Sequence record: JX509734
DNA: 38,389 nt
DNA from: Enterobacteria phage SfI
Direction: 5' to 3' (one strand)
The translations under genes and the position numbers were made by a program. The notes below the pieces were generated by a model. It did no database searches and was not told where the DNA came from. It saw only the letters and a program-made list of their open reading frames with translations. This document shows, piece after piece, positions 7,617 through 14,882 of this stretch (the first letter of the stretch is position 1; each line of letters opens with the position of its first letter).

Positions 7617-7787
7617 ATGTTTGTCAAACCTGTTAAAGGGCGGTCAGTTCCTGACCCTGCCCGCGGCGACCTTTTGCCCGCCGAGGGGCGAAATGTTGAT
7701 GAGAACAACTACTGGCTGCGCCGTGAAGCAGCGGGTGATATCCGGCGCGTGAATAAAAAGGTGAATACCGATGACGATAAGCTTTAA
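7617..7787 (+). CDS. Small protein preceding the tail sheath gene (DUF2635-like)
   Basis: 56-aa ORF (MFVKPVKGRSVPDPARGDLLPAEG...) with GAGGA RBS; overlaps the sheath start; not in the ORF track because it is under 60 aa. Confidence 0.45.
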   Translation: MFVKPVKGRSVPDPARGDLLPAEGRNVDENNYWLRREAAGDIRRVNKKVNTDDDKL

Positions 7788-9267
7788 CACCATTCCGTCG
7801 AATACGCTGGTTCCGTTGTTTTATGCGGAAATGGATAACCAGGCGGCGAATACTGCACAGGACAGCGGAGCATCGCTGCTGATTGGTCATGCCAATAACG
7901 GTGCAGAGATTGTTGCCAACAGTCTGGTGCTGATGCCATCGGCAGACTATGCACGCCAGATTTGTGGTGCGGGAAGTCAGCTGGCGCGTATGGTCGAGGC
8001 TTATCGCCAGACCGACCCGTTTGGTGAACTGTATGTGATTGCCGTTCCTGAATCCACGGGCGCGGCGGCAACAGTTACGCTGACGGTGACCGGCGCGGCA
8101 ACCGAAACCGGCACGGTGAATGTTTATGTGGGACGTACCCGCGTGCAGGCACCGGTGACCAACGGCGATAACGTCGCGACGATTGCCAGCAGTATCCAGG
8201 ATGCCATCAATGCCGTTCCGACCCTGCCGTTTACGGCTTCATCTTCGGCAGGCGTGGTCACACTGACCGCGCGTCATAAGGGGCTTTGCGGGAATGAAAT
8301 TCCTGTCAGCCTCAATTACTACGGCTTTGGTGGGGGCGAAGTGCTGCCAGCGGGCGTACAGATTGCCGTGGCGACGGGTACCGCCGGAACGGGCGCTCCT
8401 GTTCTCACCGGCGCGGTGGCTGCAATGGCGGATGAGCCGTTTGATTATATCGGCCTGCCGTTCAACGACACGGCCTCCGTTAACACGCTGGTGACCGAGA
8501 TGAACGATACCAGCGGTCGCTGGAGCTATGCGCGTCAGCTGTATGGTCATGTGTACACGGCAAAGATCGGCACGCTGTCAGAACTGGTGACCGCAGGTGA
8601 CCAGTTTAACCAGCAGCACATTACCCTGGCGGGATACGAAAAAGAGACCCAGACGCCTGCCGACGAGCTGGCGGCAAGCCGTACCGCCCGCGCAGCGGTG
8701 TTTATTCGCAACGATCCGGCACGTCCCACGCAGACCGGTGAGCTGGTGGGTATGCTGCCTGCGCCGAAGGGGAAACGGTTCACGATGACCGAACAACAGA
8801 CCCTGCTGTCTCATGGCGTGGCAACGGCGTATGTCGAAAGCGGGGTGCTGCGCATTCAGCGTGATGTCACCACGTACAGGAAAAACGCTTACGGTGTTGC
8901 GGATAACAGCTACCTCGACAGCGAGACGCTGCATACCAGCGCGTATGTACTGCGCAAACTGAAATCCGTCATTACCAGTAAGTACGGGCGTCACAAGCTT
9001 GCCAGCGACGGTACCCGCTTTGGTCCCGGTCAGGCGATTGTCACCCCGGCGGTGATCAAAGGGGAACTGCTGGCAACCTACCGTCAGCTTGAGCGTGCGG
9101 GGATCGTGGAAAACTACGAACTTTTTAAGCAGTACCTGGTTGTGGAGCGTGATGCCAGCGATCCGAACCGCCTGAACACGCTGTTCCCGCCTGACTATGT
9201 TAACCAGTTGCGTGTCTTTGCCGTGGTTAACCAGTTCCGTCTTCAGTATTCAGAGGAGTCCGCATAA
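7771..9267 (+). CDS. Contractile tail sheath protein (Mu gpL-like)
   Basis: 498-aa ORF followed immediately by a tube-sized ORF; sheath-like size and composition. Confidence 0.82.
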   Translation: MTISFNTIPSNTLVPLFYAEMDNQAANTAQDSGASLLIGHANNGAEIVANSLVLMPSADYARQICGAGSQLARMVEAYRQTDPFGELYVIAVPESTGAAATVTLTVTGAATETGTVNVYVGRTRVQAPVTNGDNVATIASSIQDAINAVPTLPFTASSSAGVVTLTARHKGLCGNEIPVSLNYYGFGGGEVLPAGVQIAVATGTAGTGAPVLTGAVAAMADEPFDYIGLPFNDTASVNTLVTEMNDTSGRWSYARQLYGHVYTAKIGTLSELVTAGDQFNQQHITLAGYEKETQTPADELAASRTARAAVFIRNDPARPTQTGELVGMLPAPKGKRFTMTEQQTLLSHGVATAYVESGVLRIQRDVTTYRKNAYGVADNSYLDSETLHTSAYVLRKLKSVITSKYGRHKLASDGTRFGPGQAIVTPAVIKGELLATYRQLERAGIVENYELFKQYLVVERDASDPNRLNTLFPPDYVNQLRVFAVVNQFRLQYSEESA

Positions 9268-9623
9268 TGGCCCGTATCGGGGGAACCTGTTATTTCAAAA
9301 TTGACGGTCAGCAGCTATCGCTGACCGGCGGCATTGAGGTGCCCATGAACAGGACGGTCAATGATGACATCATCGGCCTGGACGGTTCAGTGGACCGCAA
9401 GGAAACTCACCGTGCGCCTTATGTCAAAGGGACCTTCAAGGTGCCGAAGAATTTTCCGGTGAGCAAAATCACCTCGTCTGATGAGATGACCATCACTGCC
9501 GAGCTGGCGAACGGTCAGGTCTATGTATTGTCGTCCGCCTGGCTGCACGGAGAAGCGAACCATAATGCCGAAGAAGGCACGGTTGATCTTGAGTTCCACG
9601 GTGAAGAAGGGGATTACCAGTAA
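9267..9623 (+). CDS. Tail tube protein (Mu gpM-like)
   Basis: 118-aa ORF sharing a start/stop overlap with the sheath gene; canonical sheath-tube order. Confidence 0.78.
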   Translation: MARIGGTCYFKIDGQQLSLTGGIEVPMNRTVNDDIIGLDGSVDRKETHRAPYVKGTFKVPKNFPVSKITSSDEMTITAELANGQVYVLSSAWLHGEANHNAEEGTVDLEFHGEEGDYQ

Positions 9624-9892
9624 TGAAAGAGCTTGAGTTAAAGAAACCGATTACCGCTCATGGCGAGACACTCTCCGTACTGGAGTTTGATGAGCCCACC
9701 GGGAAAGATGTCCGCGAGCTGGGGTATCCCTACCAGATGAATCAGGATGAGTCCGTCAGACTTCTGGCGCATGTGGTATCGAAATACATTGTGCGGCTGG
9801 CGAAAGTGCCGCAAAGCTCTGTCGACCAGATGTCTCCGGCAGACCTGAATGCAGCGGCGTGGCTTGTGGCTGGTTTTTTCCTCCAGGCCTGA
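9623..9892 (+). CDS. Tail assembly chaperone, zero-frame product
   Basis: 89-aa ORF between tube and tape measure; ends ...AGFFLQA just downstream of a slippery heptamer. Confidence 0.7.
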   Translation: MKELELKKPITAHGETLSVLEFDEPTGKDVRELGYPYQMNQDESVRLLAHVVSKYIVRLAKVPQSSVDQMSPADLNAAAWLVAGFFLQA

Positions 9893-10041
9893 CGGCTGAA
9901 TACCTCACTGATCGCTTCTTTGACTGCGCCAGTTACTGGCGCATTAATCCTTTCGAATTGCTGAATATGCCGATCAGTGAAATTCCCTTACTGGTCAGTC
10001 AGGCAAACAGGATAGAGCAGGAGAAACGCACACATGGCTGA
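9859..10041 (+). CDS. Tail assembly chaperone -1 frame extension (expressed by frameshift as a fusion of about 139 aa)
   Basis: ORF in the -1 frame relative to 9623..9892, overlapping its 3-prime end and terminating just inside the tape-measure gene start; classic chaperone pair arrangement. Confidence 0.6.
   Translation: MACGWFFPPGLTAEYLTDRFFDCASYWRINPFELLNMPISEIPLLVSQANRIEQEKRTHG
9874..9880 (+). promoter_or_regulatory. Programmed -1 ribosomal frameshift slippery heptamer T TTT TTC
   Basis: Zero-frame codons GGT TTT TTC at 9872-9880; X XXY YYZ heptamer at 9874-9880; a -1 slip places ribosomes in the 9859..10041 frame. Confidence 0.6.
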
Positions 10042-11869
10042 ATTTGAGCTTAAGGCGTTGATCACCGGTGTCGACAGGCTTTCTCCCGCGCTGTCGAAAA
10101 TGCAAAAGAAAATCCGGGGATTTAAACGCCAGGCGGAAGAAGCGTCACAGGGTGGGCTGGCGCTTGGTGGCGGACTGGCAGCGGGTCTGACGCTTTCCCT
10201 GAAATCTTATGCCGATCAGGAAAACGCCGCCACCGGGCTGAAAGTCGCTATGATGGATGCGAACGGCGAGATTGGAAAGCGCTTTCAGGACATCAATAAA
10301 CTGGCTATTGGCCTGGGTAACCAGCTACCCGGTACAACGGCTGATTTCCAGAACATGATGCAGATGCTGGTGCGTCAGGGGATCCCGGCAGAAAACATTC
10401 TGAGTGGTGTGGGTAAAGCGACAGCTTATCTTGCGGTACAACTGAAAAAAACACCGGAAGCGGCTGCTGAGTTTGCTGCAAAGATGCAGGATGCTACCGG
10501 AACGGCGTCAGAAGACATGATGGGGCTGTTCGACACTATCCAGAAGGCGTTTTATCTGGGCGTGGACGATACCAACATGTTGTCCTTCTTCACTAAAACC
10601 AGCTCTGTTCTGAAGATGGTGAACAAGGACGGTCTTCAGGCTGCACAGAGCCTTGCCCCCATCAGCGTCATGATGGATCAGATGGGGATGAACGGGGAGT
10701 CGGCAGGTAACGCCCTGCGAAAAGTTATCCAGTCCGGATTAAGCGTTAAGAAAATCAGGGACGTCAATAAAGTCATGGCCCGCCAGAAACTCGGAGTGCA
10801 GCTCGATTTTACTGACGGCAAAGGGAGTTTTGGCGGTCTTGATAACATGTTCAGGCAACTGGCAAAGCTGCGAAAACTGACCGACGTTAAGCGAACAGGT
10901 GTACTTAAGGCAATATTTGGTGATGATGCCGAAACCCTTCAGGTGGTCAATGCTCTGATCGATAAAGGAAAGGATGGTTACGATCAGATCCAGCAGAAGA
11001 TGAATAAACAGGCCAGCCTGAATAAACGTGTTCAGGCACAGCTTGGTACGCTGTCCAACCTGTGGGAGGCAATGACGGGGACCGCAACTAACGGTCTTGC
11101 AGCTATTGGCGGCGCATTTTCTGGTGACGCTAAAAATATCACGCAATGGCTGGGGGAGTTGGGGGAGAAATTCACGAAGTTTGCGGATGAAAATCCCCGG
11201 GTTATTCGCGGCGTCGTCGGGCTTGCTGCTGGTCTTGCGATTCTGAAACTGGGATTGATGGGCGTTGGCGGTGCCATCAGTATTGTCAGCAGGATCATGT
11301 CGATGACGCCGATTGGCATGATTGCGACGGCGATAGCCCTGGCTGCGGGATTAATTATCACTAACTGGGATGTTGTCGGACCTTATTTTAAGAAACTCTG
11401 GGAAACCATTGGTCCTTATTTTGAGGCTGGCTGGGAACTCCTTAAGAAAGTTTTTGCCTGGTCGCCGCTGGGGATGGTGATCAATAACTGGGGGCCGGTT
11501 GTTAAGTGGTTTCAGGATATGTGGGACAAGCTGAAGCCAATTATTGAGTGGTTTACCGACAGTTCCGGTGACACGGTCGATGCCATTAACTCTGCGCAGT
11601 GGGGCGCGGGTGCTTATGATGCTTATGGGACGGGAATACCGGCGCGGGGATACACACCTTATCCGGCGGTAGATCCGGCTCAGTCAAACAACGCCTCCGG
11701 TGCCACAGGCCCGAATCCCTTCATGATTAACAAAGCTTCTGCGCCAAAAGTTGATGGTGAGATCAAGGTCTCTTTTATGAATTCGCCCCCGGGTATGCGG
11801 GTTATGGAAACGCGATCCAGCGGTTTTGATGTCAGCCATGATGTTGGCTATACGCGCTTTGGCAGGTAA
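10034..11869 (+). CDS. Tail tape measure protein
   Basis: 611-aa ORF immediately after the chaperone pair; Ala/Gly-rich with hydrophobic segments typical of tape measures. Confidence 0.85.
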   Translation: MAEFELKALITGVDRLSPALSKMQKKIRGFKRQAEEASQGGLALGGGLAAGLTLSLKSYADQENAATGLKVAMMDANGEIGKRFQDINKLAIGLGNQLPGTTADFQNMMQMLVRQGIPAENILSGVGKATAYLAVQLKKTPEAAAEFAAKMQDATGTASEDMMGLFDTIQKAFYLGVDDTNMLSFFTKTSSVLKMVNKDGLQAAQSLAPISVMMDQMGMNGESAGNALRKVIQSGLSVKKIRDVNKVMARQKLGVQLDFTDGKGSFGGLDNMFRQLAKLRKLTDVKRTGVLKAIFGDDAETLQVVNALIDKGKDGYDQIQQKMNKQASLNKRVQAQLGTLSNLWEAMTGTATNGLAAIGGAFSGDAKNITQWLGELGEKFTKFADENPRVIRGVVGLAAGLAILKLGLMGVGGAISIVSRIMSMTPIGMIATAIALAAGLIITNWDVVGPYFKKLWETIGPYFEAGWELLKKVFAWSPLGMVINNWGPVVKWFQDMWDKLKPIIEWFTDSSGDTVDAINSAQWGAGAYDAYGTGIPARGYTPYPAVDPAQSNNASGATGPNPFMINKASAPKVDGEIKVSFMNSPPGMRVMETRSSGFDVSHDVGYTRFGR

Positions 11870-11929: not shown

Positions 11930-13258
11930 ATGACGTGGAAAGACAGACTTCAGGACGCGTCATTTCGCGGTGTGCCGTTTAAGGTTGAAGAAGAAAGTGC
12001 GGGAACCGGTCGTCGTGTGGAAACGCACGAATACCCGAACCGCGACAAACCCTATACCGAAGACCTGGGGAAAATCACTTTCCGCCCGTCCATCACAGCT
12101 TATGTGGTGGGAGATGACTGCTTTGACCAGCGCGATCGCCTGATTGACGCGCTGAATAAACCCGGTCCCGGCACGCTTGTCCATCCGACTTACGGTGAGC
12201 TGAAAGTCTGTGTTGACGGGGAAGTTCGGGTCAGCACATCGAAGAGTGAAGGGCGTATTGTCCGCTTTGACCTGAAGTTTGTCGAAGCGGGAGAACTCTC
12301 TTACCCCACTTCAGGTGCGGCGACGGCGCAGACGCTGATGTCATCCTGTTCTGCACTGGATGACTGCATCAGTGACAGCTTCAGTGGTTTCAGTATCGAT
12401 GGCGTGGCAGATTTTGTGCAGAACGACGTCGTCGGTAATGCCAGCACAATGCTTGGGTATGTTTCTGATGCGATGAAAGTGGTGGATTCTGCCGTATCGG
12501 ATGCCGCCAGGCTGTTGCAGGGGGATATCTCGGTACTTCTGCCACCGCCATCGTCAGGCAAAAATTTCGTTGAGCAGGTGCAGAAAATGTGGCGTACCGG
12601 GAAACGCCTTTATGGTAACGCCAGCGACCTGGTCACCATGATCAAAACGCTTTCCGGTGTCAGCCTCGGCAGCGATCTGCAACCGCGCGGCGTCTGGAAA
12701 ACGGACAGTAAAACCAACGCCACGGCGACGCAGCAGCGTAACGTGGTTGCCAGCACCCTTCGTACGACCGCAATCAGCGAAGCGGCGTATGCCGTCACAC
12801 GATTGCCTGCGCCCACAACTTCCGCGGTGATGCAGAATGCCACAATGGGGCAGTCAACAACACCCGCGCAGAGCACCGGCTGGCCTTCTGTCACGCATCC
12901 GGCACTGAACAATGCACCGGCGGTGAAAAACACGGTTGACCTGCCAACGTGGGAAGAACTGACCGACATTCGCGACACACTGAATACGGCAATTGATAAG
13001 GAGTTGTCCCGTACAACCAGTGATGCGTTGTTTCTGGCGCTGCGCCGGGTGAAAGCAGATCTGAATGCGGATATCAACACGCGCCTTGAACAGTCTGCAC
13101 GGATCATTCAGCGCACGCCGGATGAGGTTTTACCCGCGCTGGTGCTGGCGGCGACCTTGTTTGATAACGCGGCGCGTGACGCGGACATTATCCGGCGTAA
13201 TGCCATTACGCATCCCGGCTTTGTGCCGGTGATCCCTCTGAAGGTGCCAGTGCAATGA
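11930..13258 (+). CDS. Mu gpN-like DNA circularisation / tail protein
   Basis: Track ORF 11888..13258; GGAG RBS favours the ATG at 11930, giving the N-terminus MTWKDRLQDASFRGVPF. Confidence 0.68.
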   Translation: MTWKDRLQDASFRGVPFKVEEESAGTGRRVETHEYPNRDKPYTEDLGKITFRPSITAYVVGDDCFDQRDRLIDALNKPGPGTLVHPTYGELKVCVDGEVRVSTSKSEGRIVRFDLKFVEAGELSYPTSGAATAQTLMSSCSALDDCISDSFSGFSIDGVADFVQNDVVGNASTMLGYVSDAMKVVDSAVSDAARLLQGDISVLLPPPSSGKNFVEQVQKMWRTGKRLYGNASDLVTMIKTLSGVSLGSDLQPRGVWKTDSKTNATATQQRNVVASTLRTTAISEAAYAVTRLPAPTTSAVMQNATMGQSTTPAQSTGWPSVTHPALNNAPAVKNTVDLPTWEELTDIRDTLNTAIDKELSRTTSDALFLALRRVKADLNADINTRLEQSARIIQRTPDEVLPALVLAATLFDNAARDADIIRRNAITHPGFVPVIPLKVPVQ

Positions 13259-14334
13259 ACGACAATGTCACGCTACGGGTAAATGGCCGGGAGTGGAATG
13301 GCTGGACATCGGTGCGCATCGGTGCCGGTGTTGAACGACTGGCGCGGGATTTCAGTGTGGAGATCACCCGCCAGTGGCCGGGAGATGAGGGTATTACCAC
13401 GCTTCAGTCGCGCATTAAAAACGGTTCAAAAGTGGAGGTGCTGATTGGTGATGAGCTGGTGATCACCGGCTGGGTGGAGGCGACGCCCGTTCGTTACGAT
13501 GCCCGTTCGGTCAGCACCGGTATTGCCGGACGTAGTCTGACGGCTGACCTGATTGACTGTGCAGCCGAACCGACACAGTTTAACGGACGCTCGCTGGTGC
13601 AGATTGCGCAGGCGCTTGCTGCGCCTTTCGGCATTGAGGTGGTGAACAGCGGTGCGCCGTCGGGTGTTATTCCTGATGTTCAGCCTGATCACGGTGAAAC
13701 GGTGATTGAGGTAATCAACAAAATACTCGGTCAGCAGCAGGCACTGGCTTACGACGACCCGCACGGCAGGCTGGTGATTGGCGGTATTGGCTCAACGCGG
13801 GCACATACTGCGCTGGTACTCGGGGAAAACATCCTTTCCTGTGATACGGAGAAGAGTATCCGGGAGCGGTTTTCTGTTTACCAGGTGGCGGGGCAGCGTG
13901 CCGGAAACGACGATGATTTCGGTGAGGCCACCACCACCGCGCTGCGGGCCCGCACAGAGGACGCATTTATTGCCCGTTACCGTCCGATGTATATCAGGCA
14001 GACAGGGCAGGCTACGGGGGCAGGCTGTATTGCCCGTGCGGACTTTGAAGCCAGACAACGGGCGGCGCGGACGGATGAAACCACCTACGTGGTGCAGGGC
14101 TGGCGACAGGGTAACGGTACGCTGTGGCAGCCCAACCAGCGGGTGATTGTCTTTGATCCGGTCTGTGGTTTCGACAATACCGAACTGCTTGTTTCGGAAG
14201 TCACGTTTACTCAGGACCAGAACGGCACCCTGACGGAAATCCGTGTCGGCCCACCTGATGCTTATCTGCCTGAACCCGAAGCCCCCGGCGCGCGAAAAAA
14301 GAAAAAAGCCAGAGTACAGGAGGACCCGTTCTGA
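13255..14334 (+). CDS. Baseplate hub / tail protein (Mu gpP-like)
   Basis: 359-aa ORF coupled to the previous gene; position in the Mu-type baseplate block. Confidence 0.7.
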   Translation: MNDNVTLRVNGREWNGWTSVRIGAGVERLARDFSVEITRQWPGDEGITTLQSRIKNGSKVEVLIGDELVITGWVEATPVRYDARSVSTGIAGRSLTADLIDCAAEPTQFNGRSLVQIAQALAAPFGIEVVNSGAPSGVIPDVQPDHGETVIEVINKILGQQQALAYDDPHGRLVIGGIGSTRAHTALVLGENILSCDTEKSIRERFSVYQVAGQRAGNDDDFGEATTTALRARTEDAFIARYRPMYIRQTGQATGAGCIARADFEARQRAARTDETTYVVQGWRQGNGTLWQPNQRVIVFDPVCGFDNTELLVSEVTFTQDQNGTLTEIRVGPPDAYLPEPEAPGARKKKKARVQEDPF

Positions 14335-14882
14335 TGAGGACGATTGAAGCCATGCAGCGACAACTCCTCGGCCTGATTGGGCGGGCCGTGGTGAAAAGCA
14401 TCAGTGCCGCCACGAAATGTCAGACCGTGGATGTGTCTCTGATTGCCGGTGAACCCAAAGCTGGGGTTGAACATCTTGAACCCTACGGTTTTACCGCAAG
14501 GGCAAACAGCGGTGCGGAAGCGGTGGTGTTGTTTCCGGATGGCGACCGTTCTCATGCGGTGGTTGTTACGGTGTCGGACCGGCGCTACCGCCTGAAAGGG
14601 CTGCAGACGGGTGAGGTGGCTGTCTATGACGATCAGGGGCAGTCCGTGACGCTGACCCGGGAGGGGATCGTGGTGGACGGTGCAGGTAAAACGATCACGT
14701 TTCGCAATGCACCTGAAGCACGTTTTGAAATGGACCTGGAAGTGACAGGACAGGTGAAAGACCTGTGCGACTCCGGCGGCACCACCATGTCAGCGATGCG
14801 GCTTGCCTATAACGGGCATCGTCACAGAGAGAACGGTCAGGGCAGTAACACCGACAAACCTGATAAAGCGATGGAGGCATGA
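14334..14882 (+). CDS. Baseplate spike / assembly protein V-like
   Basis: 182-aa ORF, start overlapping the previous stop; baseplate block order. Confidence 0.65.
   Translation: MRTIEAMQRQLLGLIGRAVVKSISAATKCQTVDVSLIAGEPKAGVEHLEPYGFTARANSGAEAVVLFPDGDRSHAVVVTVSDRRYRLKGLQTGEVAVYDDQGQSVTLTREGIVVDGAGKTITFRNAPEARFEMDLEVTGQVKDLCDSGGTTMSAMRLAYNGHRHRENGQGSNTDKPDKAMEA

Follow-up and report, generated by a model that had tools for sequence, protein, structure and literature searches.

Predicted -1 frameshifting between the tail tube and tape-measure genes of Enterobacteria phage SfI

Enterobacteria phage SfI (sequence record JX509734) was analyzed over a stretch of 38,389 nucleotides, referred to below as the window. 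Upstream from the tape-measure gene, a short reading frame encoding a tail assembly chaperone ends inside a second frame, which remains open in the -1 register up to the tape-measure gene. This arrangement raises the question of whether the chaperone gene specifies one product or two, the longer one resulting from a ribosomal frameshift. The occurrence of tail-chaperone frameshifting was reportedly generalized beyond lambda G/GT by Xu, Hendrix, and Duda in 2004. The lambda G/GT pair is the paradigm for this type of recoding (Levin 1993; Xu, Hendrix, Duda 2004, 2013, 2014, as summarised in PMC5009743). G/GT-type frameshifting is widely conserved in long-tailed dsDNA phages (PMC5009743; PMC2628397), with shifts of -1, -2, or +1 used by different phages (PMC5009743).

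The window belongs to a phage or prophage resembling SfV, and its contractile tail module is of the Mu type. Positions 9200 to 10400 displayed 98.5-99% identity with the Shigella/Escherichia phages SfV, SfII, SKA5, and vB_EcoM-689R6. A prophage of E. coli AR_0055 was 100% identical over the segment 9600-10100, and of 5426 complete E. coli genomes, 918 contained a match. Two overlapping frames lie between the tube (PF10618) and tape-measure (PF10145) genes, which is the position of G/GT-type genes (Table 1). The tape-measure gene is followed by the genes for a DNA circulation protein and, next, a Mu gpP-like baseplate hub. No promoter or terminator was found inside the chaperone/extension region. 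The first-pass annotation had recognized here the conserved two-product chaperone arrangement found upstream from tape-measure genes, an assignment that the gene order supports together with the PF10109 match and the conservation of the heptamer described below.

Table 1. Features of the tail module surrounding the putative frameshift site, in window coordinates.
Feature	Position	Strand	Basis
Tail sheath gene	7771..9267	+	PF04984, PF17482, PF17481; SfV orf11 'similar to phage Mu GpL'
Tail tube protein gene, directly 5' of the chaperone gene	9267..9623	+	PF10618 Tail_tube, 2.4e-33
0-frame tail assembly chaperone gene ('G'-like, equivalent of P2 E), 89 aa	9623..9892	+	ORF list; PF10109
Putative slippery heptamer T_TTT_TTC, X_XXY_YYZ phase, Gly84 Phe85 Phe86	9874..9880	+	Sequence, codon conservation
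Predicted -1 frame extension ('T'-like, equivalent of P2 E'), 53 codons PPGLTAEYLTDRFFDCASYWRINPFELLNMPISEIPLLVSQANRIEQEKRTHG and stop TGA 10039-10041	9880..10041	+	
Tape-measure protein gene	10034..11869	+	ORF list; PF10145, 5e-27
Candidate long-range stem	9887..10004	+	RNA folding prediction

The 89-aa product of the 0 frame matched PF10109 Phage_TAC_7, the P2 gpE family, with an E value of 1.9e-16 and a score of 60.3 bits (gathering cut-off, 25). The alignment placed residues 4-86 of the chaperone on profile positions 2-78 of 79. The protein also matched phrog_166, designated 'tail protein', at 7e-24, and is labeled 'phage tail assembly protein' by PGAP. The AlphaFold model of the chaperone attained a pLDDT of only 60 and a pTM of 0.41, and a profile search of PDB sequences returned no meaningful match.

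The chaperone ORF ends with the codons GCT GGT(9872-74) TTT(9875-77) TTC(9878-80) CTC CAG GCC TGA(9890-92), the letters at 9860-9892 being tggcttgtgg ctggtttttt cctccaggcc tga. Verification of the phase in the sequence confirmed that this ORF ends 12 nt after a perfect slippery heptamer, as first annotated; the distance includes the stop codon, which itself begins 9 nt past the heptamer. The -1 frame is open already from position 9751 and, read from CCT (9880), offers 53 codons before its stop. The extension overlaps the tape-measure gene, beginning with the ATG at 10034, by 8 nt (ATGGCTGA), in keeping with the earlier description of an ORF running to just inside the start of that gene. The +1 frame is open only to position 9899. 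Since the frame reached by a +1 or a -2 shift closes 7 nt beyond the 0-frame stop, only a -1 shift is possible at this locus. The conceptual fusion, join(9623..9880, 9880..10041), comprises 86 + 53 = 139 aa, the size initially predicted, and contains the expected passage from GFF to PPGLTAEYL. Its junction reads ...VAGFF|PPGLTAEYL, and the corresponding junction peptide is ...AAWLVAGFFPPGLTAEYLTDR.

The sequence TTTTTTC occurs 20 times in the whole window, and 54 in-phase X_XXY_YYZ heptamers are present in its mechanical ORFs of at least 80 aa. The heptamer by itself is not beyond chance; its position between the tube and tape-measure genes and its conservation across relatives exceed chance. 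The 20 copies of TTTTTTC, counted on both strands of the whole window, compare with an expectation of 9.85 ± 3.4, and none of 100 dinucleotide-preserving shuffles contained as many.

Relatives of the locus were collected by a scan limited to one genome per species, which yielded 20 loci with 40-100% protein identity. These loci originated from Edwardsiella, Buttiauxella, Citrobacter, Erwinia, Pantoea, Kosakonia, and other genera, down to the betaproteobacterium Derxia. Records of phages SfIV, ST64B, phiP27, Burkholderia BgVeeders33, Pantoea AH07, Pseudomonas DVM-2008 and PG1, and Bordetella PBb002 were added. All 25 distinct loci (25/25; about 35-92% identity) had T_TTT_TTN, with neither its place in the alignment nor its phase varying. 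Among 17 non-redundant loci, Gly84 was encoded by GGT (17/17), Phe85 by TTT (17/17), and Phe86 by TTC (16/17) or TTT (1/17); each of the other 25 invariant residues of the chaperone was encoded by 2 to 6 synonymous codons. Distant phages retained T_TTT_TTT, T_TTT_TTC, or T_TTT_TTG in the same phase, and the UUUUUUU variant was present in SfIV, ST64B, and phiP27. The residue preceding Phe-Phe was variable (G, R, N, S, D, or P), and the third base of its codon was T throughout: AGT, GAT, and CCT were seen in distant members, and the T of the Arg and Asn codons was deduced from the phase. In distant members, the preceding residue changes and its codon always ends in T, indicating that the base is kept rather than the residue. 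The 0-frame stop was located 9 to 63 nt downstream from the heptamer, depending on the locus, the heptamer itself being fixed. For annotation purposes, these observations provide a rule for PF10109 proteins, namely an in-phase T_TTT_TTN at the '..(A/L)xFF' position.

A scan of IMG/VR contigs with the chaperone protein retrieved 80 loci. All were 100% identical in protein sequence and were of no use for covariation analysis; they served for inspection of the T run only. Three of the 80, in near-identical prophage contigs (L024, L055, and L061), harbored a synonymous GGT to GGG change at position 1752 of the respective locus, corresponding to window position 9874, and had thereby lost the first base of the heptamer. 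L024 additionally harbored a TTC to TTT change. These three copies were the sole exceptions found to the frozen slip site. They imply that the constraint on the heptamer is not absolute or that the copies in question are decaying. They may belong to decaying prophages, or the site may tolerate a mismatch in the P site.

The part of the -1 frame located beyond the heptamer was open for 50-59 codons in all loci and ended at, or a few bases from, the start of the tape-measure gene, the ATGGCTGA overlap with that start being kept in most loci. The +1 frame was not conserved among the loci. Pairwise differences per site in the -1 frame amounted to 0.20, 0.12, and 0.40 at codon positions 1, 2, and 3, respectively. 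The extension contains the motif FDCA.YW.I.P...L......A.RI, the general form of which, (F/Y)(D/N)xAx(Y/F)Wx(I/L)xP...L......A.RI, extends from E. coli to Derxia. No ATG, GTG, or TTG codon was present 5' of the conserved part of the extension in 11 of the 17 loci, and three of the 17 were devoid of any start codon in the entire -1 ORF. The extension was matched at 2e-41 by phrog_32181, a family of unknown function; a Pfam search with the extension alone gave no match. Together, the three-base periodicity of substitutions, the shared motif, and the lack of an independent start indicate that the extension is under selection at the protein level and is reachable only from the upstream frame. The -1 extension is thus a coding sequence without a translation start of its own.

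The closest known counterpart of this locus is the E/E+E' pair of phage P2. The two loci have in common PF10109, a contractile tail, and the gene order tube, chaperone, and tape measure. The sizes of the products are similar, 91 and 142 aa for P2 E and E+E', versus 89 and 139 aa here. The slip codons are GGT TTT TTG in P2, in the context '..VVGF|L', and GGT TTT TTC here, in the context '..VAGF|F', and they fall at the same aligned residue. In both phages, the last 8 nt of the extension lie within the tape-measure gene (gene T in P2). The alignment of the fusion profile with P2 E+E' by hhalign extended from end to end, with an E value of 2.8e-4 and a probability of 41% over 119 columns spanning the junction; we have moderate confidence in the homology of the extension alone to P2 E'. 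P2 differs by the seventh base of the heptamer (G instead of C), the pairwise identity is only about 22-27%, and the surrounding module is here of the Mu/SfV type, with the DNA circulation protein and the gpP-like hub, rather than of the P2 type. In addition, the P2 pair (T_TTT_TTG, FETUD tail operon) carries a curated annotation of -1 translational frameshift, whereas the SfI site is predicted from the sequence alone. The aligned slip sites suggest a site already present before P2-type and SfV-type chaperones diverged.

The similarity to lambda is limited to organization. Lambda G/GT occupies the same gene position and combines a short abundant form with a rare C-terminally extended form, the -1 extension ending at the tape-measure gene. 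The lambda heptamer is G_GGA_AAG, the lambda tail is non-contractile, and no sequence similarity with the SfI locus was detected. A ratio of about 30:1 and the binding partners are known for lambda. Phage Mu, whose tail genes the neighboring genes resemble (sheath L, tube M, DNA circulation N, and hub P), is reported to express gp41 and its downstream extension by a -2 frameshift (PMC2628397, PMC5009743). Mu gp41 consists of 144 aa versus 89 aa for the chaperone studied here, and no BLASTP alignment between the two proteins was obtained at E<=100. With the -2/+1 frame closed and the chaperone unlike Mu gp41 in sequence, the SfI site is of the P2 type and not of the Mu type.

The arrangement described above very probably reflects a -1 ribosomal frameshift yielding a 139-aa GT-like protein, and the proposal of a programmed -1 frameshift made in the first-pass annotation is supported, every sequence-level feature predicted for a G/GT-type pair having been found. 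In the proposed mechanism, most ribosomes translating the chaperone gene would terminate at the TGA at 9890 and release the 89-aa chaperone. A minority would slip while the P site (UUU 9875-77) and the A site (UUC 9878-80) are each occupied by tRNA-Phe, the two tRNAs shifting back by one base onto UUU UUU (9874-79), and would then translate the -1 frame from CCU 9880 to the TGA at 10039-41. The resulting 139-aa product would have its first 86 residues in common with the short form. The slip would probably occur with an efficiency of roughly a few per cent at most. If the pair works as lambda G/GT and P2 E/E+E' do, the N-terminal part common to both forms would coat the tape-measure protein, whose gene lies directly downstream, and the extension would recruit the tube protein, so that the tail would polymerize to a length defined by the tape measure; neither the short nor the long chaperone would be expected to end up in the virion. 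The sequences show the anatomy of the locus, the conservation of the slip site at the nucleotide level, and the selection on the extension as a protein; from these we infer the slip, its efficiency, the proteins bound, and the part played in tail assembly.

The same 139-aa protein (GGU UUU UUU CCU CCA) would be produced if RNA polymerase added one U on the T6 run (9874-9879), since an insertion of 1 nt in the run leads to the same fusion. Transcriptional slippage of this kind would be compatible with the codon data, the conserved third base of the preceding codon also lengthening the run, and some relatives harbor a T7 run. Productive cases are documented in bacteria (PMC5009743). The efficient ones, however, involve runs of about 9 A or T (PMC5009743), as compared to 6 here and at most 7 in the relatives. 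Furthermore, the run is always found in the one X_XXY_YYZ phase, its seventh base stays within known slippery motifs, and the homologous site of P2 is annotated as translational. We consider slippage of the polymerase to be very unlikely. An absence of any recoding, leaving the 89-aa protein as the only product with an incidental heptamer and open -1 frame, or with a spacer or decayed gene at 9893-10033, would fit the abundance of in-phase slippery heptamers in the window, the annotation of the 89-aa protein alone by RefSeq and PGAP, and the few copies devoid of a perfect heptamer. A spacer would not account for a heptamer frozen at synonymous sites, nor for three-base periodicity of substitutions and a peptide conserved from Enterobacteria to Betaproteobacteria, and this possibility appears highly improbable. 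A sequencing error or a pseudogene is contradicted by dozens of independent genomes in which the arrangement is identical.

The extension might also be thought of as a small gene of its own, translated independently from the GTG at 9859 into a 60-aa protein. Record ON470584 annotates the -1 ORF in this manner, as a separate 'hypothetical protein', and phrog_32181 was built from such ORF calls. The -1 ORF had indeed been delineated at first as 9859..10041; its overlap with the chaperone gene and its 3' end were confirmed, but the GTG was not retained as a start codon. This GTG arises where the 0-frame codons GCG and TGG adjoin, the latter encoding the invariant Trp80, and is merely the first NTG of a mechanically defined ORF. 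Neither a Shine-Dalgarno-like sequence nor a promoter-like site was found before the -1 ORF, and the distribution of start codons among the 17 loci argues in the same direction. Independent translation is extremely unlikely, and the 'hypothetical protein' call of ON470584 is a mis-call.

As regards the -1 ribosomal frameshift that we favor, the motif U_UU.U_UU.C is of the H_HH.U_UU.Y type, a class that ranks with the most efficient ones in E. coli (PMC4066793). In E. coli reporters, UUUUUUC led to -1 frameshifting at 0.12% in the absence of a stimulator, 0.89% with that of IS911, and 7.6% with the IS3 pseudoknot; the corresponding values for UUUUUUU were 0.33%, 0.45%, and 10.2% (PMC4066793 supplement). 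Since bare UUUUUUC is weak, stimulatory elements were looked for in the vicinity of the heptamer. No upstream Shine-Dalgarno-like element was found, the best duplex in the window reaching -2.7 kcal/mol and having no conserved position among relatives. The first 50 nt past the heptamer were not more structured than shuffled sequences (z=+0.6). Longer downstream segments folded better than shuffles, with z=-3.1 for 140 nt and z=-2.8 for 184 nt, and a further MFE z-score for downstream folding was -2.4. At the base of the predicted long-range stem, which begins 6 nt past the heptamer, GCCUGAC (9887-9893) would pair with GUCAGGC (9998-10004); the stem encloses CACUGAUCG/CGAUCAGUG and a hairpin at 9927-9943.

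Comparison of 10 close relatives indicated that 81% of the pairs of the long-range structure were kept, versus 79% in shuffles. Two-sided changes occurred in 10 pairs versus 5.7±1.7 in shuffles, values that related sequences can reach without any structure. Covariation support for the putative long-range stem is thus weak. Its helices were not recovered in the alignment of the 17 loci and were not conserved in distant relatives. For the same 17 loci, RNAalifold proposed no consensus structure beyond 6 pairs. The pairing probability of nucleotides +5 to +16 was not significantly raised in any locus, and no Rfam match was detected in the region. Overall, the search revealed no stimulator conserved among the relatives. 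The hairpin at 9927-9943 is a perfect stem of 7 bp (GCGCCAG-UUA-CUGGCGC) over extension codons C-A-S-Y-W-R. Among the 10 closer relatives, no position of its stem varied, not even at synonymous sites, but the stem was broken in three loci (L097, L100, and L103). At 46 nt from the heptamer, this hairpin is too far for a canonical stimulator, unless it acts within the larger predicted stem. Strong local G+C-rich hairpins starting 2-9 nt past the heptamer were present in a proteobacterial MAG (L098, positions 1750-1770), Derxia gummosa (L103, 1752-1785), and Burkholderia phage BgVeeders33 (L108, 558-575), one example from these distant relatives being GGGCUCG-GCGG-CGAGCCC; the enterobacterial group was devoid of such hairpins. 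Stimulators, if any, may be lineage-specific. We regard it as unlikely that an unusual mRNA structure acting over a long range, a stem of about 118 nt with a canonical 6-nt spacing that spans almost the whole extension, tunes the frameshift. If this were the case, the extension would be stimulated by its own coding sequence, and the slip site, ancient, fixed, and common to this family and P2, would have acquired a different stimulator in each of several lineages.

The 139-aa fusion was annotated in none of the public records inspected, which included SfV, the RefSeq entry of SfII, other phage records, and E. coli genomes annotated by PGAP. In the RefSeq record of SfV (NC_003444) and in PGAP annotations, the 141 nt (9893-10033) separating the chaperone and tape-measure genes are without a feature, and the locus tags of E. 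coli AR_0055 (NZ_CP021935) skip RS16095 at this gap. Six database proteins of 107-139 aa (P0001-P0006) were considered as natural fused alleles and rejected, as each contained several internal frame errors and formed a single-member cluster; they appear to be artefacts of assembly or indels around the T run and elsewhere. In the literature searched, no frameshift was reported for the tail genes of SfV, SfII, SfIV, or ST64B; SfV may already be in the Xu 2004 list. The type of feature, the mechanism, and the homologous prototype (P2) are already known, and the missing annotation is the sole novelty. The scientific gain is small, since tail-chaperone frameshifting is a textbook form of recoding and an annotation of this kind already exists for the homologous site of P2; the practical value lies in the annotation of the 139-aa product in the SfV lineage and in E. 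coli prophages.

A second heptamer was observed in the baseplate hub gene. The strongest -1 frameshifting motif in E. coli is A_AAA_AAG, and this sequence occurs in phase at 14295-14301 (+ strand), 30 nt before the stop codon of the Mu gpP-like hub gene (13255..14334). The -1 frame is there that of the next gene (14334..14882), so that a slip would fuse the hub to a gp45-like protein. As a second recoding site, this heptamer was rejected for lack of conservation, SfIV harboring CGG AAA AAG and both ST64B and AH07 being devoid of an in-phase heptamer. It lies within a run of Lys codons (ARKKKKAR) and is probably incidental.
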